This document shows, one piece after another, positions 7,300-17,072 of a stretch of 24,000 bases of DNA (positions are counted from its first letter, which is position 1; each line of letters starts with the position of its first letter). Source of the stretch: an uncultured Alphaproteobacteria bacterium (lineage in GTDB: Bacteria > Pseudomonadota > Alphaproteobacteria > Rhizobiales > Methyloligellaceae); NCBI GenBank assembly GCA_963803385.1, contig CAWDMD010000007.1:346770-370769 (forward strand), in the 5' to 3' direction. The notes beneath the pieces are model-generated. The model had not been told where the DNA came from. It searched no databases and saw nothing but the letters and a program-made list of their open reading frames with translations. The position numbers and the translations under genes were made by a program.

Positions 7300-7648
7300 A
7301 TGCGCAAGTTCAATCTCATCGCCTTTTTGTTGCCTTTGGTCATCGCCTCCGCCGCCCACGCCCATGCCATGCTCGACCACGCGAGCCCCGCGGTCGGCAG
7401 CACGGTGGCGCGGTCGCCGGGTCAGGTCACGCTCACCTTCACCGAGAAGCTCGAGCCCAAATTCAGCGGCGCCGAAGTGCTCAAGTGCTTCTGGCGCGCG
7501 CGTCGATCAGGGCAAGAGCGTCAGCGGCAATGTCATGCGCATTCGCCTGAAGGGATTGGCGCCCGGCGCCTATCGGGTGAACTGGCACGCCCTTTCCGTC
7601 GACACGCACAAGACACAAGGGAGCTTCAACTTCAAAGTCGGGGGCTGA
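7300..7648 (+). pseudogene. copC: copper-binding periplasmic protein CopC, interrupted by a +1 frameshift near 7474-7495
   Basis: The N-terminal part is in frame 1: signal MRKFNLIAFLLPLVIASAAHA|HAMLDHASPAVGSTVARSPGQVTLTFTEKLEPKFSGAEVL. The C-terminal part is in frame 2: ASGARVDQGKSVSGNVMRIRLKGLAPGAYRVNWHALSVDTHKTQGSFNFKVGG*, ending at TGA 7646-7648. The total is 349 nt, which is 116 codons plus 1 nt. Confidence 0.8.
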
Positions 7649-7679
7649 CGCGAGCGCTAAAGCCCCACGGCTCGATCCC

Positions 7680-8713
7680 ATGGATGATTGGCTCGTTGCA
7701 GCGAGGACGGTCCAGTTTGGCGCCAGCATCGTCGCCGGAGGCGGGGCGATCTTCGTCGCCAGCGTGGCGGACGGCGGACGCGCTGCCAGGCGAAGGTCAG
7801 AGGTCCGTGGCAAGGGAGATCGATGGCACCGTGATTGCGGCGCTGCTCGCGGCGATCGCCTCGGGGGCGCTCTGGCTCAGCCTGTTCCGGTCCGAGCTCG
7901 AGCAGGCGTTCGCCGACGATGACACCCAGGTGACGATGTGGTCGGTCGTCACCGACACCCAGTTCGGCCGCGTCTCGGCGCTGCGTTTCCTCATCGCCTG
8001 CTGCTGATCGGGCTCTGCTCAGTCCGCTATGGCGCGGCCGCTGCCGCGATCCCGAAACTTAGATTGGCTGGGCGCGCTGCTCGGCCTCGCGCTCGTCGTC
8101 AGCCTCGCCTGGTGCGGCCATGCCGGCAGCGGCATGGGCATCGGCGGAGACGCCCATCTCGCGGCCGATGCGGTCCATCTCGCCGCGGCGGCCATCTGGG
8201 TCGGCGGTCTCATCCCGCTCCTCCTCCTCCTTCGGCCACGTCTCCCGCTCACGCCTCTCGACCGATACGGCATGGTCCGGCGCTTCTCGACGCTTGCCAT
8301 GTGGAGCGTCGCGCTGCTGGTCTTAAGCGGCGTCATCAACACCTGGTTCATGACCAATGGCTTCCGCGACCTGATCGGAACCGACTATGGCGACCTTGTC
8401 CTGATCAAGGTCGCGCTGCTCCTGATCATGCTGGGCTTCGCCGCCTTGAACCGGTTCCGATTGACCCCGCGATTACTTGGCGGCTGGCGCCGCCGCCTCT
8501 CAAGCGCTGTGGTGGTCGGTGGCGGCGGAACTCGCGCTCGGAGTCCTCGTCATTTGGGTGGTTGGCGTCCTCGGCCAGACCGAGCCGCCCGGCCACATGC
8601 ACGTGGGCGCTTCCGGGACGGGTCCCGTGCTCGCCGAAAACTCAAGCGGCCTGTCGCGGTTTGGCGCGCGTCGCGGCTCACGGGGATGTGTCATTGACAT
8701 GGCTACCAAGTAG
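7680..8713 (+). pseudogene. copD: copper resistance/uptake membrane protein CopD, disrupted by at least two frameshifts plus an in-frame TGA (or four frameshifts)
   Basis: CopD-like transmembrane segments are spread over several frames. Frame 3 from ATG 7680 gives MDDWLVAARTVQFGASIVAGGGAIFVASVA. Frame 1 gives IDGTVIAALLAAIASGALWLSLF...TDTQFGRVSALRFLIA, ending at TGA 8005-8007. Frame 1 then resumes with NLDWLGALLGLALVVSLAWCGHAGSG...ADAVHLAAAAIWVGGLIPLLLLL...LIKVALLLIMLGFAALNRFRLTP. Frame 2 from about 8477 gives ALWWSVAAELALGVLVIWVVGVLGQTEPP. Confidence 0.75.
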
Positions 8714-8728
8714 TAGGTAGATACGCCG
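8694..8728 (+). promoter_or_regulatory. predicted sigma70-type promoter overlapped by a 20-bp operator-like box (copy 1), upstream of the MBL hydrolase gene
   Basis: TTGACA sits at 8694-8699. The box GCTACCAAGTAGTAGGTAGA (8702-8721) contains the dyad CTACC-N8-GGTAG. A TAGATA -10 candidate sits at 8718-8723. Exactly 29 nt separate the -35 hexamer from ATG 8729 and there is no Shine-Dalgarno, a geometry that fits a leaderless transcript. Confidence 0.5.
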
Positions 8729-9727
8729 ATGATGCCGGGAAAGCTCGACATTTGCTCGCATTGCGGCGGACCGCCGCTGTCGCGCCGGGGCCTCCTCAAG
8801 ATCTCGGTCGCGCTCGCATCGGTGCCGTTTCTGAGGCCGATCCCGGGCTTCGCCGCGGCGCCCGCAGCCGACGCCCTCGAGGTCACCGAAATCGCCCCCG
8901 GCGTCTTCGTGCATCAGGGCCGCTACGAGATGCAATCGCCCGAGAACCGCGGTGACATGGCCAATGCCGGCTTCATTGTCGGCAACGACGCGGTCGCCGT
9001 GATCGACACGCTCGGTAGCGAAGAAGTCGGCGAGCAATTGCGGAACGCGGTGCGCGCGGTCACCGACAAACCGATCCGCTACGTCATCAACACCCACATG
9101 CATCCGGACCATGTGTTCGGCAATGCCGCGTTCAAAGAGGACAATCCCGAATTCGTCGCCAACCGCAAGCTCGAGCGCGGACTGCGCGCCCGCGCCGAGC
9201 GCTATCTGATGATCAACAAGAAGATGCTCGGGCCGGAGGCGTTCAAAGGCATCGAGATCGTGCTTCCCACCGTCGCCGTCGACGACAAGATGACGCTCGA
9301 TCTCGGCGGCCGTACCCTCCTGCTCGAGACGCAGCCGACGGCTCATACCGACAACGACCTCATCATCACCGACAGCGCCACCAACACGATGTTTCTCGGG
9401 GACCTGTTGTTCTCGGGCCATGTGCCGACGCTCGACGGGTCTATCGAGGGCTGGCTCGCGGTGATCGACAATCTGAAAGAACGGAAGGTCGCGCGCGTCG
9501 TGCCCGGGCACGGGCCTCACGCCATGGAGCTGCCGCAGGCCTTCGATCCGGAGGAGAACTATCTCGCCACGATCGCGACCGACGTCCGCAACATGATCAA
9601 GGACGGCAAGACCATCGAGGACGCGACCAAGACGGCGGGCTTCGAGGCGCGCGATTCCTGGAAGCTGTTCGATGAGTATCACGTGAGAAACGTCACCGCG
9701 GCCTTCGCCGAACTCGAATGGGAATAA
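8729..9727 (+). CDS. MBL-fold metallo-hydrolase, periplasmic; resembles the quinoprotein-relay-system zinc metallohydrolase family
   Basis: 332 aa with a twin-arginine-like signal (SRRGLLKISVALASVPFL...AAA). It has the HxHxDH motif NTHMHPDHVFGN and downstream His/Asp ligand candidates (AHTDND, PGHGP). A SoxYZ-like carrier gene follows, the usual partner in that family by recollection of TIGRFAM/PGAP naming. Confidence 0.8.
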   Translation: MMPGKLDICSHCGGPPLSRRGLLKISVALASVPFLRPIPGFAAAPAADALEVTEIAPGVFVHQGRYEMQSPENRGDMANAGFIVGNDAVAVIDTLGSEEVGEQLRNAVRAVTDKPIRYVINTHMHPDHVFGNAAFKEDNPEFVANRKLERGLRARAERYLMINKKMLGPEAFKGIEIVLPTVAVDDKMTLDLGGRTLLLETQPTAHTDNDLIITDSATNTMFLGDLLFSGHVPTLDGSIEGWLAVIDNLKERKVARVVPGHGPHAMELPQAFDPEENYLATIATDVRNMIKDGKTIEDATKTAGFEARDSWKLFDEYHVRNVTAAFAELEWE

Positions 9728-9745
9728 ATTTGGGAGGAAGACGCC

Positions 9746-10571
9746 ATGTCCGGCAGTGTTGATCGCCTTGTCTCTCTGTCCGCCGCGGCGGCGCTTGCCG
9801 CAACGCTTCTTGTCTGCGGCGCATCCTTGGCCAAGGCCGATGAGGATGTGTGGCCGACGCTGAAACAGGCGAATTTCGGCGACCGCGACATCAAGGCCGA
9901 GGACGGCTTCGTCACCCTCGATGCCCCGGTCACCGCCGAGGACGCCGCGGTGGTGCCGCTCACGGTGCGGGTGCCGCCGTCCGTCAAGGCCAAGCTCAAG
10001 TCGCTGACCCTGATCATCGACAAGAACCCGAACCCGGTGGTGGCCAAGGTGCATTTCGGCCCCGCCGCCGGCACGGGCGGCGAGCGCTCGTTCGCGACCC
10101 GGGTCCGCGTCGACAATTTCTCTCATGTCCGCGCCATCCTCGAGACCGAGGACGGCACCTTGCACATGGCGACCAAATTCGTGCAGGCCGCGGGCGGCTG
10201 TGCCGCGATGCAGGCCAAGGACCCGGACGCCGACACGGTCGGTCTCGGCAAGACCATCGTGAAGAGCGTTCCCGCCGGCGTTGTCGTCGACGCCGCTGTT
10301 CGAAGGGCTGGTGATGATCAAGCACCCGAACGCGAACGGCATGCAGCTCGACATCAATACCGGCGACTATATCCCGGCGCGGTTCGTCAAGGAGGTGGTG
10401 GTGAAGCGTGACGGCGAGCTCGTGTTCGACATGGACACCACGTTCTCGATCTCGACCAACCCGAATTTCCGCTTCAGCTTCGGCCGCGGCACCGACAACG
10501 AACTCGAGGTCGCCATCACCGATACCGACGGCACCTTGTTCACCGGCAAGTCCGACCCGAGCGGGTCGTAG
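9746..10571 (+). pseudogene. SoxY-SoxZ fusion-type carrier (quinoprotein dehydrogenase-associated SoxYZ-like), split by one frameshift at about 10263-10290
   Basis: The frame 2 part has a Sec signal (ASLAKA|DEDVW) and a SoxY-like domain ending in AAGGCAA (Cys codon 10199-10201). The frame 3 part is SoxZ-like: STPLFEGLVMIKHPNANGMQLDINTGDYIPARFVKEVVVKRDGELVF...SISTNPNFRF. Frame 3 opens only after TGA 10260-10262. The total is 826 nt, which is 275 codons plus 1 nt. Two separate genes (soxZ-like with a TTG start at 10281) cannot be excluded. Confidence 0.65.
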
Positions 10572-10764
10572 CGCGAGCTGCCACGGCTGCCCGACGTGAG
10601 AGCGACCCGCGCCCGGCCGAGAGGTTTGCGCAGATGGATAGCCAATATACCAAAGATGTTCTAGGCCAAAAGGCCAATACTGCAGCGGAGCGTACCTACA
10701 TTATAACTGAAGTCATGCTCGGAAACTCAATTAAGACGAACCGAACTCCCAGGAGGAATTACCC

Positions 10765-11292
10765 ATGCGATCCGCTCTTTATTTGCTGATATTTGCCCTT
10801 ATGCTCTTCGCTGTGCCTGAAGCGAGGGCGGATGATGCCGCCATGAGCAGCGAGGATCTTATGGCAAGCTTGAAGGGCGCTGCCCCGGATAGTCTCATCA
10901 AAGACGCCACGCTCATGAACATGGCCGACATGACGGTCCTCCGGAAGGGCACCAATGGCTGGACCTGCATGGTCCATGGCGGGGTGCCGATGTGCGTCGA
11001 CGATGTGGGGCTTGACTGGGTGCATGCCCTGATGAGCAAGTCGGCGCCGCCGGAGAAGATCGGCCTGATCTACATGCTCAAGGGAGACGCCGGCGTCAGC
11101 AATACCGATCCCTTCGCCAAGGCGGAGACCCCCGACAACAATTGGGTCAAGACCGGCCCGCACATCATGATCGTCGGCGGCGTCAAGGGTCTCGCCCAGG
11201 GCCTTCCCAACGGGGCGAAGCCGGACGAAACCGCGCCTTATGTGATGTGGCCGGGGACGCCCTACGAGCATTTGATGCTCCCGACCGATTAG
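10765..11292 (+). CDS. secreted hypothetical protein (175 aa), no family recognised
   Basis: AGGAGG Shine-Dalgarno (10751-10756) lies 8 nt before ATG 10765. The Sec signal is MRSALYLLIFALMLFAVPEARA|DD. The mature part has a Cys pair (GWTCMVHGGVPMCVDD) and several Met/His residues. A ~190-nt unusually AT-rich spacer precedes it. Confidence 0.7.
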   Translation: MRSALYLLIFALMLFAVPEARADDAAMSSEDLMASLKGAAPDSLIKDATLMNMADMTVLRKGTNGWTCMVHGGVPMCVDDVGLDWVHALMSKSAPPEKIGLIYMLKGDAGVSNTDPFAKAETPDNNWVKTGPHIMIVGGVKGLAQGLPNGAKPDETAPYVMWPGTPYEHLMLPTD

Positions 11293-11362
11293 GCTCGGGT
11301 TTCGCATCGCGCGGGCGCGGGGCCGCAGCCGGCGGCTCTGAGCCTGCCCGAAACCTTCGCCG

Positions 11363-11397
11363 TTGACACGCTACCAAGTAGTAGGTAGACGAGCGAA
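11363..11397 (+). promoter_or_regulatory. predicted sigma70-type promoter overlapped by the same 20-bp operator-like box (copy 2), upstream of the TetR gene
   Basis: TTGACA sits at 11363-11368. The box GCTACCAAGTAGTAGGTAGA (11370-11389) is identical to copy 1. A TAGACG -10 candidate sits at 11386-11391. Again exactly 29 nt separate the -35 hexamer from ATG 11398, with no clear Shine-Dalgarno. Confidence 0.5.
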
Positions 11398-11976
11398 ATG
11401 ACGCTGACCAAGGACTTGCTGCTGGCCGAGGCCGAGGCGCTGTTGCGCACACGCGGCTACGCCGCCTTCAGCTATGCCGACCTCTCAACGCGCGTCGGCA
11501 TTCGCAAGGCGAGCATCCACCATCACTTCGCCACCAAGGAGGAACTCGGCGGCGTCCTGATCGACAATTACCTCGTCAGGTTCGAAGACGCCCTGAAGGA
11601 GATCCTCGCGCAGGAGTCGAAAGCCAAAATCAGGCTGGAGCGCTACGCCCACTTCTTCGTTACCAGCATGATCGACGGCATGTTGCCCTTGTGCGGCGCT
11701 CTCTCGGCAGAGATGGCGGTATTGCCGCAATCGATCCAAGAGCGGGTCCACCGCTTCTTCAGGCTGCATCTGGACTGGGTGGAAGGGGTGATCCGTGCCG
11801 GCGTCACCGCCAAGGAGTTGCGCGCCGACGTCGACCCCGGCACCACCGCGATGCTCATTCTGAGTACGCTCGAAGGCGCGAGCTTCGTCGCCTGGGCCAT
11901 CGACGACGCGCGCCAGATCGCGCCGGCCGTCGGGCAATTGATTGCCTGCCTCGAGCGCCGGAAGGCCGGCTGCTAA
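11398..11976 (+). CDS. TetR/AcrR-family transcriptional regulator
   Basis: 192 aa. The N-terminal HTH is LLRTRGYAAFSYADLSTRVGIRKASIHHHFATKEEL, typical of the TetR_N domain. An all-helical C-terminal ligand domain follows. Confidence 0.9.
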   Translation: MTLTKDLLLAEAEALLRTRGYAAFSYADLSTRVGIRKASIHHHFATKEELGGVLIDNYLVRFEDALKEILAQESKAKIRLERYAHFFVTSMIDGMLPLCGALSAEMAVLPQSIQERVHRFFRLHLDWVEGVIRAGVTAKELRADVDPGTTAMLILSTLEGASFVAWAIDDARQIAPAVGQLIACLERRKAGC

Positions 11977-12006
11977 AGGCCCCGCGCCGCTCGCGCCCGC
12001 AACCGC

Positions 12007-12820
12007 CTAACGGTCGCTCGCGCTGTAATAGCCCTGATGCAGCCGCTTGCGGTACACCACCCCGGGATGGGAGGAGCACGCCTTCATCACATCGATGCCG
12101 CTGAACTTGGACAAATCGTACTGGCACACGATCGTCGTCTGCGGGTGCTCGATCAGGAGATCGTTCAGAGCCGCCTCATAGTCGTGCATGGTCTCGACGC
12201 CCGGCGTTTCGGTGAAGAACCAATCCATCTCACCGACAAGGAGATGCGATGGGTGATTGTCGGCGCGCTTGCGGATGATCTGCAGGCGCATGAAGGCGAC
12301 CATGAACTCGGGCGTGAACGTCGCGTTCTTCAAATAAGCGTCGCTCGCCGGAATCAAGGTCAGCAGTCCGCGATGCATGAGTTCGTGGGGGTCCAATCCC
12401 TCATCGCGGACGCGATCCATAAGCTCTTCGCGCGTGCTTGCCGAATGGATGTAGACGGTCGGCTTGCCGGCATAGAAGTGATTCAAAAAGAAGGGACGGA
12501 ACGCTTCCCAACGCTCGGCATGGCGCCCGACGAACAGGCAGATATGCCTTGAGGCGAGGTCGGAGTTCGGCTTCCTTGGCGCCGCTGCTCAAGCCGCTGA
12601 TGGTCGGTGCCCTGAGGTCCGACGTCTCGGACACGCCGCTCGCAACGAACATGTCAAGTACGTCGGCATCGAAGCGGCGCTCGTTGCGCGGCCCAACGCG
12701 ATGACATGCGAGCGTGCCCTCGTTGGTCCAACGACGGAGCGTGGTCTTGCTCACCGCGAGATAGGTCGATGCCTCGTCAAGGGTCAGAAGTGGTTTCAAT
12801 TTGCTCATAGGTATTGGCAC
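12007..12820 (-). pseudogene. DcmR-like regulator (N-terminal excisionase/MerR-type HTH plus C-terminal MEDS sensory domain), split by one frameshift at about 12550-12588
   Basis: One frame holds the HTH part: MSKLKPLLTLDEASTYLAVSKTTLRRWTNEGTLACHRVGPRNERRFD, starting at ATG 12808 or GTG 12820. A second frame holds the MEDS domain: RHICLFVGRHAERWEAFRPFFLNHFYAGKPTVYIHSASTREELMDRV...IVCQYDLSKF..., running to TAA 12007-12009. The MEDS frame has a TGA at 12589-12591 and no canonical start codon before RHICLF. The total length equals whole codons plus 1 nt. Confidence 0.7.
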
Positions 12821-13221: not shown

Positions 13222-13830
13222 TCACACCCGCCTCCGTCGGGCGCGATCGGCGGACGCCGCCTGGCGCTTTACCAACAGCAGCGCCAGTCCACTACCGAGA
13301 ATCATCACCACAAGCACCTTCCAGCCAATTCGCAGCAGCGGCGGCCAAGCGGTGCCGACCGCAAACGGAAACCGTGCGACTTGATCGGCGCCCCCCTCCT
13401 TTGCCGTCACCAGCCCCACATATCGGCCGGCCTCCGCGAAGTCGTGCTCGAAGTGAATGGTGCCGGTCGAATAGGACGCCGGCGGCAGGCTGAATTCGAC
13501 GGGCTGCTCGTCATCGGCCTTCCACCCGTCGACGACGTGCAGAATTTTCACTTCGACCGGAAGGTTGCGCATGCCCGGGTCGACATAGTCCAAGGCGACC
13601 ACCGTCTTCCCGGTCTTCGGGATGTCCTCGCAAAACTCCTGCGTGTCGGTCTCTTGAGGCTGATATCCAGTGAAGTGGATGATGTGCGTCCCGACGCGCA
13701 AGACGCACTTGTCCTGCTCGATGCTCAGCCCGCCATGCGCCGATGCCTGCGGGGAAAACCACCCCGAGGCAATCAGCGCATAAGCGGCGAGGCCGATGAC
13801 GGCGACGAACCTAATGGCTTCCTCCCTCAC
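13222..13830 (-). CDS. pmoD: PmoD/AmoD-like periplasmic protein with C-terminal membrane anchor
   Basis: The GTG start overlaps the pmoB stop (GTGA, 13827-13830). The signal peptide is IRFVAVIGLAAYALIASGWFSPQASA|HGG. A ~150-aa beta-rich domain with two Cys follows, then a C-terminal TM helix (IGWKVLVVMILGSGLALLLV) and a basic tail. Topology and position directly after subunit B match PmoD, but no motif-level match could be verified. Confidence 0.55.
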   Translation of the reverse strand: MREEAIRFVAVIGLAAYALIASGWFSPQASAHGGLSIEQDKCVLRVGTHIIHFTGYQPQETDTQEFCEDIPKTGKTVVALDYVDPGMRNLPVEVKILHVVDGWKADDEQPVEFSLPPASYSTGTIHFEHDFAEAGRYVGLVTAKEGGADQVARFPFAVGTAWPPLLRIGWKVLVVMILGSGLALLLVKRQAASADRARRRRV

Positions 13831-15101
13831 GACGTCCCGAGAAAGTTCGGAATGATTGGGCCCGAAATCTCGGCAATGCGACGCACGCCTTCCGGCGTGT
13901 AGAAGAAGAGAAGAGCTCCGAACCGATTGTCCGGATCGTTGAGCAGGCTGGTGAGACGCTCGACCTCCCACGCAGCGTCGGTAGCCTCGATGTCGATCTC
14001 TCTGGTCTCACCTGGCTGTATCGGCCGGTCGTCCTTCACGATCAGTCCGTGGTTGACCAAATCCGCCGGGTAGCCCTCGTCGACGTTGCTCACCGCGGTT
14101 TCCGACTTCGCGTTGACGAAGCGAACGTTGGCGCTGGTGAACTCGCCGATCTCAAGCACGTCCGGGGTCTCGTTCTTGACTTGCAAGGTCATCTTCATCG
14201 AGCGGCCCGGCACGTCATAGGTCGCCCGCAACACCTTCACCGAGACCTGGCTATCCGGGAGCGGCAGCGGGGGGGTTTGCATCTTGCCCGCTTGAAGGGG
14301 AACGCTGCGTGGGTATTCGGTGTCGGCCCAACTCACCCCAGCGACGACGATGGTGACGGTGCCGACGAGAATGCCCGCCGCGACGACCATGTCCGCGCGC
14401 GTGATCAGGCGGCCGGCGTGGCCCGCCGCCACCTCGCGGAAGCGCGGGATAAGCATCGGACGGCGCATCCACCACAGCAGCCAGAACAGGCCGATAGCGG
14501 CCCAAAGTCCCTGCCAAATGACGACGGTGCGAACGCCCCAGGTGGACAGGTCAGGGATGGTGCGGCCATCGAGGGTCTTTACCGGATAAACGAAATCCGC
14601 GGCAGCGCCTGTGACATCGACCCATTTGCCCGGCCCGACGATCGGGCCGGCCTGATGAACCAGGACGGTCGGATGAATGTGCCACCGCCCGGGTAGGCGC
14701 GCCTGGAGCACGATCTTGAAACTATAGTCGCGGCCCTTCTGCAAACCTGTAGAATTTTGCGCCGCAACCTCGTTGATGTACGACTTCTTCTTCACCATCA
14801 CCGAGCCGGGACCGCCGGTCGACAGGAACGCAAGTGTCGGATCCGCAAGATTCTGCGGCCAGTCGCCGAATACCCTGAACTTTCCGGTGACGACGAGATC
14901 GTCGTTCACCTTCATCTCATCCGTCGACCATTTGACGTCGTACCATTCGAGGGTCCGCATCCGCAGGAACGGCTCCTGGTTGCGTTCGCCATGAGCGAAG
15001 GCGGAGACGGTGCCAACAACAGAGACTGCGCAGACGAGGATGAAGAGATTGGCCCAAAGCAGAAGACGCCGTGCCAGGGCCGACCGAATGACGAGGAGCA
15101 T
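13827..15101 (-). CDS. pmoB: copper membrane monooxygenase subunit B (PmoB/AmoB family)
   Basis: GGGAGGG Shine-Dalgarno lies 7 nt before ATG 15101; an upstream ATG at 15131 is also open. The signal is cleaved at AFA|HGERNQEPFLRMRT, giving an N-terminal His ligand. The HxH motif is GRWHIHP. Two central TM helices and a C-terminal cupredoxin-like domain follow. Confidence 0.92.
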   Translation of the reverse strand: MLLVIRSALARRLLLWANLFILVCAVSVVGTVSAFAHGERNQEPFLRMRTLEWYDVKWSTDEMKVNDDLVVTGKFRVFGDWPQNLADPTLAFLSTGGPGSVMVKKKSYINEVAAQNSTGLQKGRDYSFKIVLQARLPGRWHIHPTVLVHQAGPIVGPGKWVDVTGAAADFVYPVKTLDGRTIPDLSTWGVRTVVIWQGLWAAIGLFWLLWWMRRPMLIPRFREVAAGHAGRLITRADMVVAAGILVGTVTIVVAGVSWADTEYPRSVPLQAGKMQTPPLPLPDSQVSVKVLRATYDVPGRSMKMTLQVKNETPDVLEIGEFTSANVRFVNAKSETAVSNVDEGYPADLVNHGLIVKDDRPIQPGETREIDIEATDAAWEVERLTSLLNDPDNRFGALLFFYTPEGVRRIAEISGPIIPNFLGTS

Positions 15102-15167
15102 AACCGTTCCCTCCCGAGGATTGTGGTGCATGCGAGTTGCTTACGCCTTGTTCGCCTATGTGCCGGG

Positions 15168-16001
15168 TTAGTCGGTCTCGTTCGCCTTAGGCTTCACACC
15201 CAGATAGGTTGCGATCGGGCTTTCAACCCAGTTGGTCTTGGCGAAGAACAAGCCGATGTACCACCACACCAGATACATCATCATGCAGACGAAGGCTGAG
15301 AAGAAGGCGGAGATCCACGCGGAATGCCCGCCAAAGGTTCTCAGCGTTCCCCGCTCGATGAAGCGGAGGTATTCGGGGGTGGAGGAACGGGTGAAGACAT
15401 AGCCGACCATGTCCGCGGTCGACTGCACCTGGCCCATATGCTCGACGGGGATGTGATACGCCGCGATCATCGGGTAGTTGCCGGGATAGAACAGTAGCCC
15501 GAAGCCCCAAGCCCCAATGATGGCGGTCGCGAGAAAATTGCGGCTCAGCAACAGAACCGAGTCCATGAACAGCGCGCCGGGCAGAAGGAGCGTCGGGAAA
15601 ATCAGGCTGTAGGGCAGCCCCGCCCACATATGGAAGCCGAGGATGCGGTCAACCCACTGGCCGAACATGAGCGCCAGGATGCAAAGCGTGGCGCCGATCG
15701 GCAGGCGGAACTTTTCCCAAAGATAGGCTTGAGCCGCGGCCGGGAACATGATGGCCACGATGGGGGTCAGGGTGGCCCAGAACTGCCGGTCCTTCCAATC
15801 GACCCAGAAGTCCCAGTCACCGGCCAGCAGCATGAAGTGCAGGTGAAACGTGCCGGCGATCGTGAAGAACGCGATCACCGCGATCACCAAATCAAATGCC
15901 CTGGATGCCCGTGCTGCAGCAACTTTCGGAGGCACTTGCGTGTCTCTGGCTGCGGCGCCGCTTGTTCCACGGGTCTCCCGATATTCCATCGTGGTGGTCA
16001 T
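15168..16001 (-). CDS. pmoA: copper membrane monooxygenase subunit A (PmoA/AmoA family), 277 aa
   Basis: Diagnostic stretches include FHLHFMLLAGDWDFWVDWKDRQFW, GLLFYPGNYP, TPEYLRFIERGTLRTFGGHSAWISAFFSAFV and WWYIG. A GAGGGGAG Shine-Dalgarno-like run precedes ATG 16001. It is longer than the usual ~250 aa because of an N-terminal extension and a C-terminal polar tail. Confidence 0.92.
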   Translation of the reverse strand: MTTTMEYRETRGTSGAAARDTQVPPKVAAARASRAFDLVIAVIAFFTIAGTFHLHFMLLAGDWDFWVDWKDRQFWATLTPIVAIMFPAAAQAYLWEKFRLPIGATLCILALMFGQWVDRILGFHMWAGLPYSLIFPTLLLPGALFMDSVLLLSRNFLATAIIGAWGFGLLFYPGNYPMIAAYHIPVEHMGQVQSTADMVGYVFTRSSTPEYLRFIERGTLRTFGGHSAWISAFFSAFVCMMMYLVWWYIGLFFAKTNWVESPIATYLGVKPKANETD

Positions 16002-16140
16002 TTCGCTCCCCTCAATCTTGTCGTTATGCGGACCGGCTCATGGTTGAGCTCGTTCCATTTGGTGTTTGGGAAATGGGGCGCCGGCCTCGTCGATCCGGGA
16101 GGTCACAGCTCAGCCGACGCCCCTTCCTTTTGGTGGGCGC

Positions 16141-16926
16141 CTAATGCGCGACACCATCCAGAGCGTGCTCGCCCCAAATCTCGTTGATCAGCTCGTTGAG
16201 GCGAAGGCCGATCTGAAGGGCGAGGCCGAACAGCGCCAGCCCGGTCCAACCGAGCGCGACGAAGCCCCAGTGGAGAGGCGCGGTAAACCACTCCTCCATG
16301 AACCAGAAGGCATGGCCCCATTCATTCAGGCCAACGTTCGGAAGGATGAAGAACGGTCCGAACACTGCCAGCATGAAGGGAATGGAGACGCGCCTTGCGA
16401 ATTTCGGCAGACGCGTCGTGGCGTACATCAGGGCCGCCGATCCGCAAATGATGTAGATCGGGAAGCTGAGATAGAAGATGGCGATGTGGCTCGGCGTGAA
16501 GCTCGTATCGCGGAGCACGGTCTGATGCCACGAGCCGTCCTGCTCGGCGAAATAGCTCGCGCCCCAATAGACGGCGAACACATAGACGAGCAGCAATCCG
16601 AGAAGCTTGAAGTACCGGACGATCTCAACTTGAGGGGGCAGGTCTTCCAGGTCCCTGTCACGGGTGAACCACAGGTAGGAAAGCCAGCCGACGCCGATCA
16701 GCGGCAGCAGCACAAGCTGAGTCCAAAGCAATCTCATCCAGTAAATTTGAAATTCCGGCAGCGTGGAATTGAGGCCGTATTTCCATCCCGCGATGCCTTG
16801 ATAGACGCGAACTGCGGAGTACAGCACGAGCAGGAAGCCGCAGCCGATCGCGCCGATCTGTGCCCACGTTTTATTCATCGACGCCTGCGCGATACGCGCC
16901 GGGCGTTCATTCGCATAAGCAGTCAT
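16141..16926 (-). CDS. pmoC: copper membrane monooxygenase subunit C (PmoC/AmoC family), 261 aa
   Basis: AGGAGG Shine-Dalgarno lies 8 nt before ATG 16926; the ORF track's upstream extension to 17013 has no such signal. Metal-site motifs are EQDGSWHQ...FTPSH and NEWGHAFWFMEEWFTAPLHWG. Confidence 0.92.
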   Translation of the reverse strand: MTAYANERPARIAQASMNKTWAQIGAIGCGFLLVLYSAVRVYQGIAGWKYGLNSTLPEFQIYWMRLLWTQLVLLPLIGVGWLSYLWFTRDRDLEDLPPQVEIVRYFKLLGLLLVYVFAVYWGASYFAEQDGSWHQTVLRDTSFTPSHIAIFYLSFPIYIICGSAALMYATTRLPKFARRVSIPFMLAVFGPFFILPNVGLNEWGHAFWFMEEWFTAPLHWGFVALGWTGLALFGLALQIGLRLNELINEIWGEHALDGVAH

Positions 16927-17072
16927 ATGGTTTTCCTCCTTAGAATTGCCGACCGGAGACCCTGCCGGCCAACCGAACGTTCCCAAGGGGTGACCCCCTG
17001 GTCTCCTCCTCAAATCAATGGCCAGTCCGCCCTATTCGTCCCATTCTTCCCAGCGCGCACGAACCAAAGATA

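Follow-up and report, generated by a model that had tools for sequence, protein, structure and literature searches.

The closest described counterpart of the system considered here is AcuR of Rhodobacter sphaeroides, a TetR-family repressor encoded by the first gene of acuR-acuI-dddL. Its operator, TAATAGAC-N6-GTCTATTA, is an inverted repeat overlapping the promoter, and the acuR transcript begins exactly at the AUG by 5' RACE (rapid amplification of cDNA ends); according to the authors, acuR-like genes of other taxa also lack leaders (Sullivan et al. 2011, PMC3017554). Here we analyze a 24-kb stretch of contig CAWDMD010000007.1 from an uncultured alphaproteobacterium (the window, to which all coordinates refer unless a locus is named), in which a gene for a TetR-family regulator (11398-11976, + strand) and a pair of genes for a metallo-beta-lactamase (MBL)-fold hydrolase and a SoxYZ-like carrier are each headed by a copy of the same 20-bp box. 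Comparison with related loci makes it quite probable that both boxes are operators of this TetR protein, through which it would repress its own gene and the MBL/SoxYZ-like pair from leaderless promoters.

The two systems resemble each other in layout. In both, a TetR-family protein of an alphaproteobacterium, a presumed repressor in the window, is associated with an inverted-repeat operator lying over a sigma-70-type promoter, and the ATG stands some 30-36 bp beyond the point where the -35 hexamer begins, with no ribosome-binding site (by inspection in the case of the window). Furthermore, the AcuR model is among the best NCBIfam matches of the window TetR. The protein is nevertheless not an AcuR orthologue (52.6 bits against NF051457, cut-off 247), and the operators differ, with TAATAGAC-N6-GTCTATTA for AcuR and CTACC-N8-GGTAG in the window. 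AcuR targets acuI/dddL and has acrylate as its inducer, whereas the candidate targets here are a periplasmic MBL hydrolase and a SoxYZ-like carrier; in addition, the window module occurs twice, also heading the MBL gene, which is not regulatory.

Tn1721 tetR and lambda cI, both cited in PMC3017554, are the classical cases of leaderless repressor mRNAs, with low-level translation of an autoregulated repressor, and the window resembles them in that its repressor mRNA is predicted to start at the AUG. Tn1721 differs in having tetO operators and divergent tetA/tetR genes, whereas the genes in the window are co-directional, and the kinship between the two TetR proteins is distant. The operators of NemR (TAGACC-N4-GGTCTA) and RutR (TTGACCA-N2-TGGTCAA) are, like that of the window, palindromes around an ACC...GGT core, and a CTACC-N4-GGTAG variant found beside TetR paralogues has the spacing of the NemR box; a further resemblance is a cysteine close to the LSAE segment that is conserved in the ligand domain. 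By contrast, the outer arm bases differ, and the window operator has an 8-bp center with a conserved GTAG.

Fused SoxYZ-like carriers and SoxH-like metallohydrolases are widespread in methylotrophs and pseudomonads, their function not being known, and the same is true of the quinoprotein relay genes PP_2677/PP_2678 in the ped cluster of Pseudomonas putida (PMC12997753). The window MBL and SoxYZ-like genes belong to the same families (TIGR04557/TIGR04559) as the ped genes, but the pair is not beside a pyrroloquinoline quinone (PQQ) dehydrogenase within the window; it lies between copCD-like genes and a pmoCAB-type operon and would be under a dedicated TetR. In the literature searched, the coverage of which is incomplete, we found no description of the operator strings or of a TetR regulator of quinoprotein relay genes. 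A dedicated repressor with a clear operator would offer a practical handle on what induces the MBL/SoxYZ-like pair and hence on its role. What the present analysis adds is broad comparative support, the finding that the module is duplicated in the window lineage, and a regulatory point of access to genes situated next to a copper monooxygenase operon.

Two promoters of the window carry an identical box

The 20-mer GCTACCAAGTAGTAGGTAGA is present exactly twice in the 24-kb window, on the + strand at 8702-8721 (site 1) and 11370-11389 (site 2), and the pair forms family D5 in the repeat listing. We found no third copy with three or fewer mismatches on either strand of the window and no match to the 20-mer in 100 dinucleotide shuffles; in relaxed motif scans of the window, matches with at least two mismatches were no commoner than in shuffles, and no third site emerged. 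The sole two TTGACA hexamers on the + strand, at 8694-8699 and 11363-11368, precede the two boxes, with a gap of 2 nt (TG) at site 1 and of 1 nt (C) at site 2. The initial annotation had claimed that the identical 20-mer occurs exactly twice, that a TTGACA lies 1-2 nt before each copy and 29 nt before the ATG, and that the box holds a CTACC-N8-GGTAG dyad with a 16-mer self-complementary at 12 of 16 positions. Our recount confirmed each of these, including the coordinates of both copies, and gave 14/18 for an 18-mer; the 18-bp core of the box is CTACC-AAGTAGTA-GGTAG. The interval from hexamer to ATG is 29 nt at both sites (8700-8728 and 11369-11397), a value not to be over-read as exact, given that it is 30 nt at site 1 of the nearest relative (L001) and that single-base indels separate the window from its close relatives, so that distances need tolerance. 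Outside the -35 hexamer and the box, the regions around site 1 and site 2 are without similarity. An in-frame TAG within each box (8714-8716; 11386-11388) closes the 5' side of both open reading frames (ORFs), so that no start farther upstream than the ATGs at 8729 and 11398 is possible. The elements of the two promoters (P1 and P2) and the genes between and behind them are as follows.

8694-8699, + strand: -35 hexamer TTGACA of P1 (MBL/soxYZ-like genes), overlapping the TGA stop (8695-8697) of a CopD-like ORF
8702-8721, + strand: putative operator box 1 (core 8703-8720), filling the P1 spacer and the first half of the -10
8718-8723, + strand: putative -10 TAGATA of P1 by family alignment, with an 18-nt spacer and 5 nt to the ATG
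8717-8722, + strand: alternative P1 -10 GTAGAT, with a 17-nt spacer
8729-9727, + strand: quinoprotein relay system zinc metallohydrolase 2 (MBL fold; TIGR04559, Lactamase_B)
9746-10571, + strand: fused SoxYZ-like carrier gene (TIGR04557 on both pieces; SoxY and SoxZ domains)
10765-11292, + strand: p175, a 175-aa secreted protein of no known family, between the soxYZ-like gene and tetR
11363-11368, + strand: -35 hexamer TTGACA of P2 (tetR), unchanged in close relatives with differing flanks
11370-11389, + strand: putative operator box 2 (core 11371-11388), identical to box 1
11386-11391, + strand: putative -10 TAGACG of P2 by family alignment (spacer, 17 nt; distance to the ATG, 6 nt)
11398-11976, + strand: TetR-family regulator, 192 aa (TetR_N and TetR_C_13)

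The box heads the tetR/MBL/soxYZ-like cluster in related genomes

Searching with the TetR protein in one genome per species, we obtained 80 loci. The nearest relative, from an uncultured alphaproteobacterium, is 94% identical, followed by proteins of Methyloceanibacter, Methyloligella, and Hyphomicrobium (53-66%) and then of Lysobacter, Pseudomonas, and others (45-57%). Using tblastn with the window proteins, we found tetR, MBL, and soxYZ-like genes to be neighbors in about 28 of the 48 closest loci. Two gene orders occur: Hyphomicrobium and loci L002 and L003 have tetR-MBL-soxYZ, and Methyloceanibacter-like loci and the window lineage have MBL-soxYZ-tetR. In both orders, TTGAC followed by a box of the class CTACC-WWGTRRTW-GGTAG precedes whichever gene leads the cluster, and the MBL-soxYZ-tetR loci L018, L019, L028, L031-33, L037, and L041 accordingly have it upstream of the MBL gene. 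A separate box for tetR is missing from this second order, except in the window and closely related loci, in which the p175 gene has been inserted ahead of tetR. The center of the box is not free, since GTAG is conserved there, giving CTAC...GTAG...GTAG. Variants of the box, CTACC-N4-GGTAG and the 12-bp palindrome CCTAC-TA-GTAGG, flank TetR paralogues with other neighbors in Lysobacter, Pseudomonas, Aeromonas, Serratia, and Acinetobacter. This distribution lends comparative support to two earlier proposals from the sequence, that tetR is autoregulated through the box, which heads the cluster and accompanies TetR paralogues, and that the MBL/SoxYZ-like pair is co-repressed, given the linkage and the box before the first gene.

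The perfect identity of the two copies raises the question of their origin. It could merely reflect a promoter fragment that was recently duplicated on the spot, copy 2 having no regulatory role: MBL-soxYZ-tetR relatives carry a single box at the cluster head, two perfect copies are confined to the window lineage with its extra p175 gene, and the second copy is decaying in a sister lineage. We nonetheless regard this as highly improbable. The dissimilarity of the two regions beyond the -35 and the box fits a recent copy less well than it fits copies of old or independent origin whose functional bases are under selection, box 2 and its TTGACA are retained down to 77-87% TetR identity even though the flanks differ, and a box ahead of tetR is the rule in Hyphomicrobium and other genera. 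Decay, moreover, is seen only where tetR has become adjacent to the MBL gene. In that sister lineage, represented by metagenome contigs L100, L109, and L123 from different samples, the soxYZ-like gene and p175 are deleted, which brings tetR right behind the MBL gene; what is left of the tetR promoter (L100 2180-2265 and the equivalent positions of L109 and L123) indicates that the arrangement derives from a window-type one. Box 1 is intact in all three contigs, whereas box 2 has decayed to GCCACCAAGT-GTAGGGAGA, and in L109 its -35 is mutated to TCGACA. Decay of box 2 alongside an intact box 1 is the pattern expected of functional regulatory sites, and it fits a view in which selection would preserve box 2 for as long as tetR depends on a regulated promoter of its own, and no longer.

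Loci in which tetR comes first have a further feature, a second box or half-box (CTACCWACTRGAAGG) just past the tetR stop codon (L034 6575, L035 6575, L039 6573, L043 6574, L022 6573, L009 6575, L027 6573, and L015 6549). It is a full CTACC-N8-GGTAG in L009 and L027 and is preceded by a T-run and TTG(A/C/T)C; in L015, a clear terminator hairpin stands before it, and in Hyphomicrobium its right arm is at the same time the ribosome-binding site for the MBL gene. This post-tetR box could be a second operator or an internal promoter.

Conserved promoter geometry points to leaderless transcripts

From the window and the protein-found loci, we collected 37 distinct promoters spanning many genera and compared their geometry. 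The -35 is TTGACN throughout, and the spacer is 17 or 18 nt in 35 of the 37 (18 at site 1 and 17 at site 2 of the window). The -10 reads TAG-N-N-T, with A2 in 37/37 and T6 in 22/37, and its TA is part of the operator's right arm. Between the -10 and the ATG there are 5-9 nt in 34/37 promoters (mode 7; 5 and 6 in the window), leaving practically no space for a leader, and the distance from -35 to ATG is 28-34 nt (mode 30; 29 and 29 in the window). These roughly 37 promoters from many genera support the idea, proposed from the single proven case of acuR, that TetR-type modules in Proteobacteria are often leaderless.

The sequence between box and start codon is in keeping with this geometry. By inspection, the box-to-ATG interval contains no GGAG, GAGG, or AGGA at either site, and in close relatives the segment separating box 2 from the ATG is constant in length (9 nt) but varies in sequence (cgagcgaa, cgataaaa, cgactaaa, tgaagtca) and is never Shine-Dalgarno-like. 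The same genes have clear ribosome-binding sites, of the AAGGA type, if they are internal to the cluster: GGAAGGA or AGAAGGA 5-8 nt before the ATG for internal MBL genes in Hyphomicrobium and GAGAGG or GGGGAAG for internal tetR genes, and where the distance from box to ATG is long (L071, L078, L097, L125), a GGAG-type site is present.

Several observations weigh against leaderless transcription. A generic sigma-70 scan returned no promoter at either site, which is explained by the family -10 (TAG-N-N-T) failing the rules of the scan, and the -10 candidates of the window, TAGATA and TAGACG, are weak, both lacking T6. The sole complementarity to the 3' end of 16S rRNA is an AGGT within the box, a weak pairing 10-11 nt from each ATG. 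Duplex energies with this 3' end did not differ between box-proximal and other starts (p = 0.56), a crude comparison that is confounded by the AGGTAG of the box itself and by noisy start choice for internal genes and that we do not use as support; given this null result, the absence of ribosome-binding sites rests on inspection and conserved spacing. The MBL start also slides by one codon among near relatives (ATGATG, ATCATG, ATGGTA), which use either the first possible start, corresponding to ATG 8729, or the second, ATG 8732; a strict placement of +1 at the A of the ATG thus fails in some relatives, giving a 3-nt leader, unless the transcription start shifts as well. Finally, the CopD-like ORF stops at 8697, within the -35 of P1, and read-through transcripts with long leaders may arrive from copD.

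These points leave some weight on an alternative in which TetR does use the boxes as operators but leaders are present on the mRNAs, with transcription starting upstream (for example, by read-through from the copCD-like genes into the MBL gene), the AGGT of the box serving as a weak ribosome-binding site, and TetR acting as a roadblock or occluding that site. In its favor, the 20 nt upstream of these starts pair with the 16S rRNA 3' end no less strongly than those upstream of other starts. We consider it unlikely, however: TTGACN is held 17/18 nt from TAG-N-N-T across the 37-promoter set regardless of what lies upstream, the distance to the ATG is conserved in length and not in sequence, a real GGAG-type site appears in the loci with a long distance, a spacing of 10-11 nt exceeds the usual range for a 4-nt site, and the related acuR operon is proven to be leaderless. 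The proposal that both transcripts are leaderless thus draws support from the 37-promoter geometry and the acuR precedent, and we consider it fairly likely that the mRNAs of P1 and P2 are leaderless or nearly so.

TetR is the most likely box-binding protein

The TetR protein has an N-terminal helix-turn-helix (HTH) domain (PF00440, residues 8-50, 40.3 bits against a cut-off of 24) and a C-terminal, all-helical domain for ligand binding and dimerization (TetR_C_13, PF16925, 36.3 bits against a cut-off of 27), and it matches the TetR crystal structures 2g7s and 3on4 over its full length (E about 1e-21). Its HTH region is nearly invariant in 32 MBL-linked orthologues, and this near-invariance across the subfamily parallels the invariant CTACC and GGTAG arms of the box. 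A single cysteine, Cys99 in the motif LPLCGAL (window about 11692-11694), is shared by 109 of the 110 homologues compared, which range from Hyphomicrobium to Pseudomonas, and could be a thiol-sensing residue or purely structural. As to named subfamilies, AcuR membership was rejected by the NF051457 score given above and also by context, the neighbors being MBL, SoxYZ-like, p175, and MEDS genes and the operator being CTACC-N8-GGTAG, not of the TAGAC-N6-GTCTA type. A ScbR-type autoregulator-binding TetR (NF041196) was likewise rejected at 56.5 bits against a cut-off of 150, and the NCBIfam search returned no NemR or RutR model at E <= 0.001.

The exact 18-mer was found on 56 stretches of a metagenome collection; the stretches being chosen by this exact match, the invariance of the box among them is partly by construction and counts against reading it as conservation. 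Eleven of the 56 are low-GC sequence (GC ~0.34) with no TetR gene. Among the other 45, a TetR homologue (31-94% identity) lies on the same stretch in 29, and a further four cover pieces of a copD-box-MBL junction like that of the window. The samples from which the window's organism was assembled contain the exact 18-mer solely in the two promoter contexts. In the distant loci L098, L110, and L113, the box is inverted with respect to the -35, which fits a quasi-palindromic DNA site and speaks against an RNA element.

Could the box instead belong to a dispersed repeat, form an RNA hairpin element, or be bound by another protein, such as the MEDS-domain protein encoded beside tetR, with its adjacency to tetR coincidental? 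The 20-mer alone does fold as a 5-bp hairpin (-6.2 kcal/mol, z = -2.9), and the low-GC contigs carry the same 18-mer without a TetR gene. In context, however, the folds are no better than those of shuffles (z = -0.7 and -1.3), on which ground we rejected the RNA-element reading; a dispersed repeat would sit poorly with just two copies in the window and promoter contexts only in the organism's samples; and the MEDS gene, rejected as the source of the box binder, is found in the closest relatives only, whereas the box follows TetR homologues everywhere, across alpha- and gammaproteobacteria. Together with the inverted boxes, these observations render a coincidental adjacency very unlikely. Taken jointly, the co-occurrence of 18-mer and TetR, the promoter-only contexts, the box inversion, the null RNA folds, and the parallel conservation of HTH and arms argue that TetR is by far the most likely protein to bind the box.

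Two groups of metagenome contigs stand apart. In the low-GC contigs (L081, L085, L086, L088, L093, L094, L104, L108, L114, L120, and L124), the 18-mer is embedded in an identical longer sequence, aatggccccattatCTACC...GGTAGttttcccccatgatcc, and these contigs appear unrelated to the bacterial operator. In the GC-rich contigs L097 (11-1148) and L125 (8-1318), a gene for a distant MBL-fold protein (40%) and a TetR gene (42-43%) are divergent, with the exact 18-mer between them and normal ribosome-binding sites for both, showing that the TetR/MBL pairing recurs beyond the leaderless layout.

A predicted repressor switch acting on both promoters

The comparative evidence thus gives a well-supported picture of a conventional bacterial switch, in which a TetR repressor would act at an operator overlapping a leaderless-type promoter. 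The box, an imperfect 18-bp palindrome, would occupy the spacer of a sigma-70-type promoter and extend into its -10 (TTGACA, 17/18 nt, TAGNNN). Because it fills the spacer and part of the -10, a TetR dimer bound there, or a pair of dimers, would be expected to shut RNA polymerase out of P1 and P2; two overlapping dimers per box are possible, given the conserved central GTAG. P1 would transcribe the genes for the metallohydrolase and the SoxYZ-like carrier and possibly that for p175. P2 would transcribe tetR, establishing negative autoregulation that would keep the level of repressor low. A ligand or modification sensed by the C-terminal domain of TetR would free both promoters at once, such that one signal would derepress the hydrolase and carrier genes together with tetR. 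Both mRNAs are predicted to have their 5' ends on the AUG itself or no more than about 3 nt away, owing to the 5-6 nt from -10 to ATG and the apparent lack of a ribosome-binding site, and leaderless translation of tetR might further lower the level of repressor, as measured for acuR.

A more far-reaching version of this scheme is doubtful at present. In it, the -35/operator/-10/ATG unit would be a portable, self-contained leaderless cassette that heads the tetR/MBL/soxYZ-like cluster despite changes of gene order across alpha- and gammaproteobacteria, and the TetR, by way of Cys99, would sense reactive sulfur, an electrophile, or a copper-linked signal, thereby controlling a periplasmic relay of SoxYZ-like carrier and metallohydrolase that serves the adjacent copper monooxygenase (pmoCAB) or PQQ dehydrogenases. 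If true, the cassette would make any leading gene leaderless, that of a Tat (twin-arginine translocation)-exported enzyme included, and would provide the first regulatory entry to the function of the "quinoprotein relay" genes.

Genes of the locus

The MBL protein belongs to TIGR04559 (404.5 bits, cut-off 280), and its translation carries a twin-arginine signal (SRRGLLK). In the window, a single inserted nucleotide near 10268-10270 breaks the soxYZ-like gene into two overlapping ORFs (9746-10411 and 10281-10571); alignment there shows GAAGAGCGTT in the window and GAAGA-CCTT in L001, L118, and L136. With the gene split in this way, TIGR04557 (cut-off 140) matches its N-terminal piece at 140.5 bits and its C-terminal piece at 79.3 bits. 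The frameshift is either a sequencing indel or a mark of a real pseudogene.

The p175 gene has its own ribosome-binding site (caggagga) and a stretch of lower GC upstream (GC ~0.55). Library searches found no Pfam, NCBIfam, or solved-structure relative of the protein, which has two cysteines, in WTCMVHGGVPMC. It is present in L001, and a 51% identical homologue lies directly upstream of box-tetR in the distant metagenome-assembled genome (MAG) L020 (5283-5837); p175 may belong to the same functional module as box-tetR. A 15-nt imperfect inverted repeat (10606-10620, 11307-11321), possibly due to chance, brackets the gene.

A terminator scan returned nothing on the + strand between the genes of the region. 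The following genes flank the region, for which megablast of 8000-12600 against a plasmid collection gave no match.

7300-8007 and 8029-8697, + strand: CopC- and CopD-like ORFs by family/domain searches, the final stop falling in the -35 of P1
12007-12486, - strand: MEDS-domain protein by domain search
13827-17013, - strand: pmoCAB-type copper monooxygenase operon (pmoC 16141-17013, pmoA 15168-16001, pmoB 13827-15131)

The pmoCAB-type operon is about 2 kb from tetR, and the CopC/CopD-like genes flank the MBL/soxYZ-like pair on the other side. The CopC/CopD-like region is broken: its two ORFs share a frame, with a stop at 8005-8007 between them, and the alignment of the region (7300-8720) to L001 changes frame several times, indicating further indels between the two sequences. 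These breaks suggest error-prone (long-read) assembly of the window, of L001, or of both. The 159-aa MEDS-domain protein is of a DcmR-like sensory type and shows no obvious DNA-binding domain; its gene is convergent to tetR, and its position beside tetR is conserved in L001, L107, and L121.

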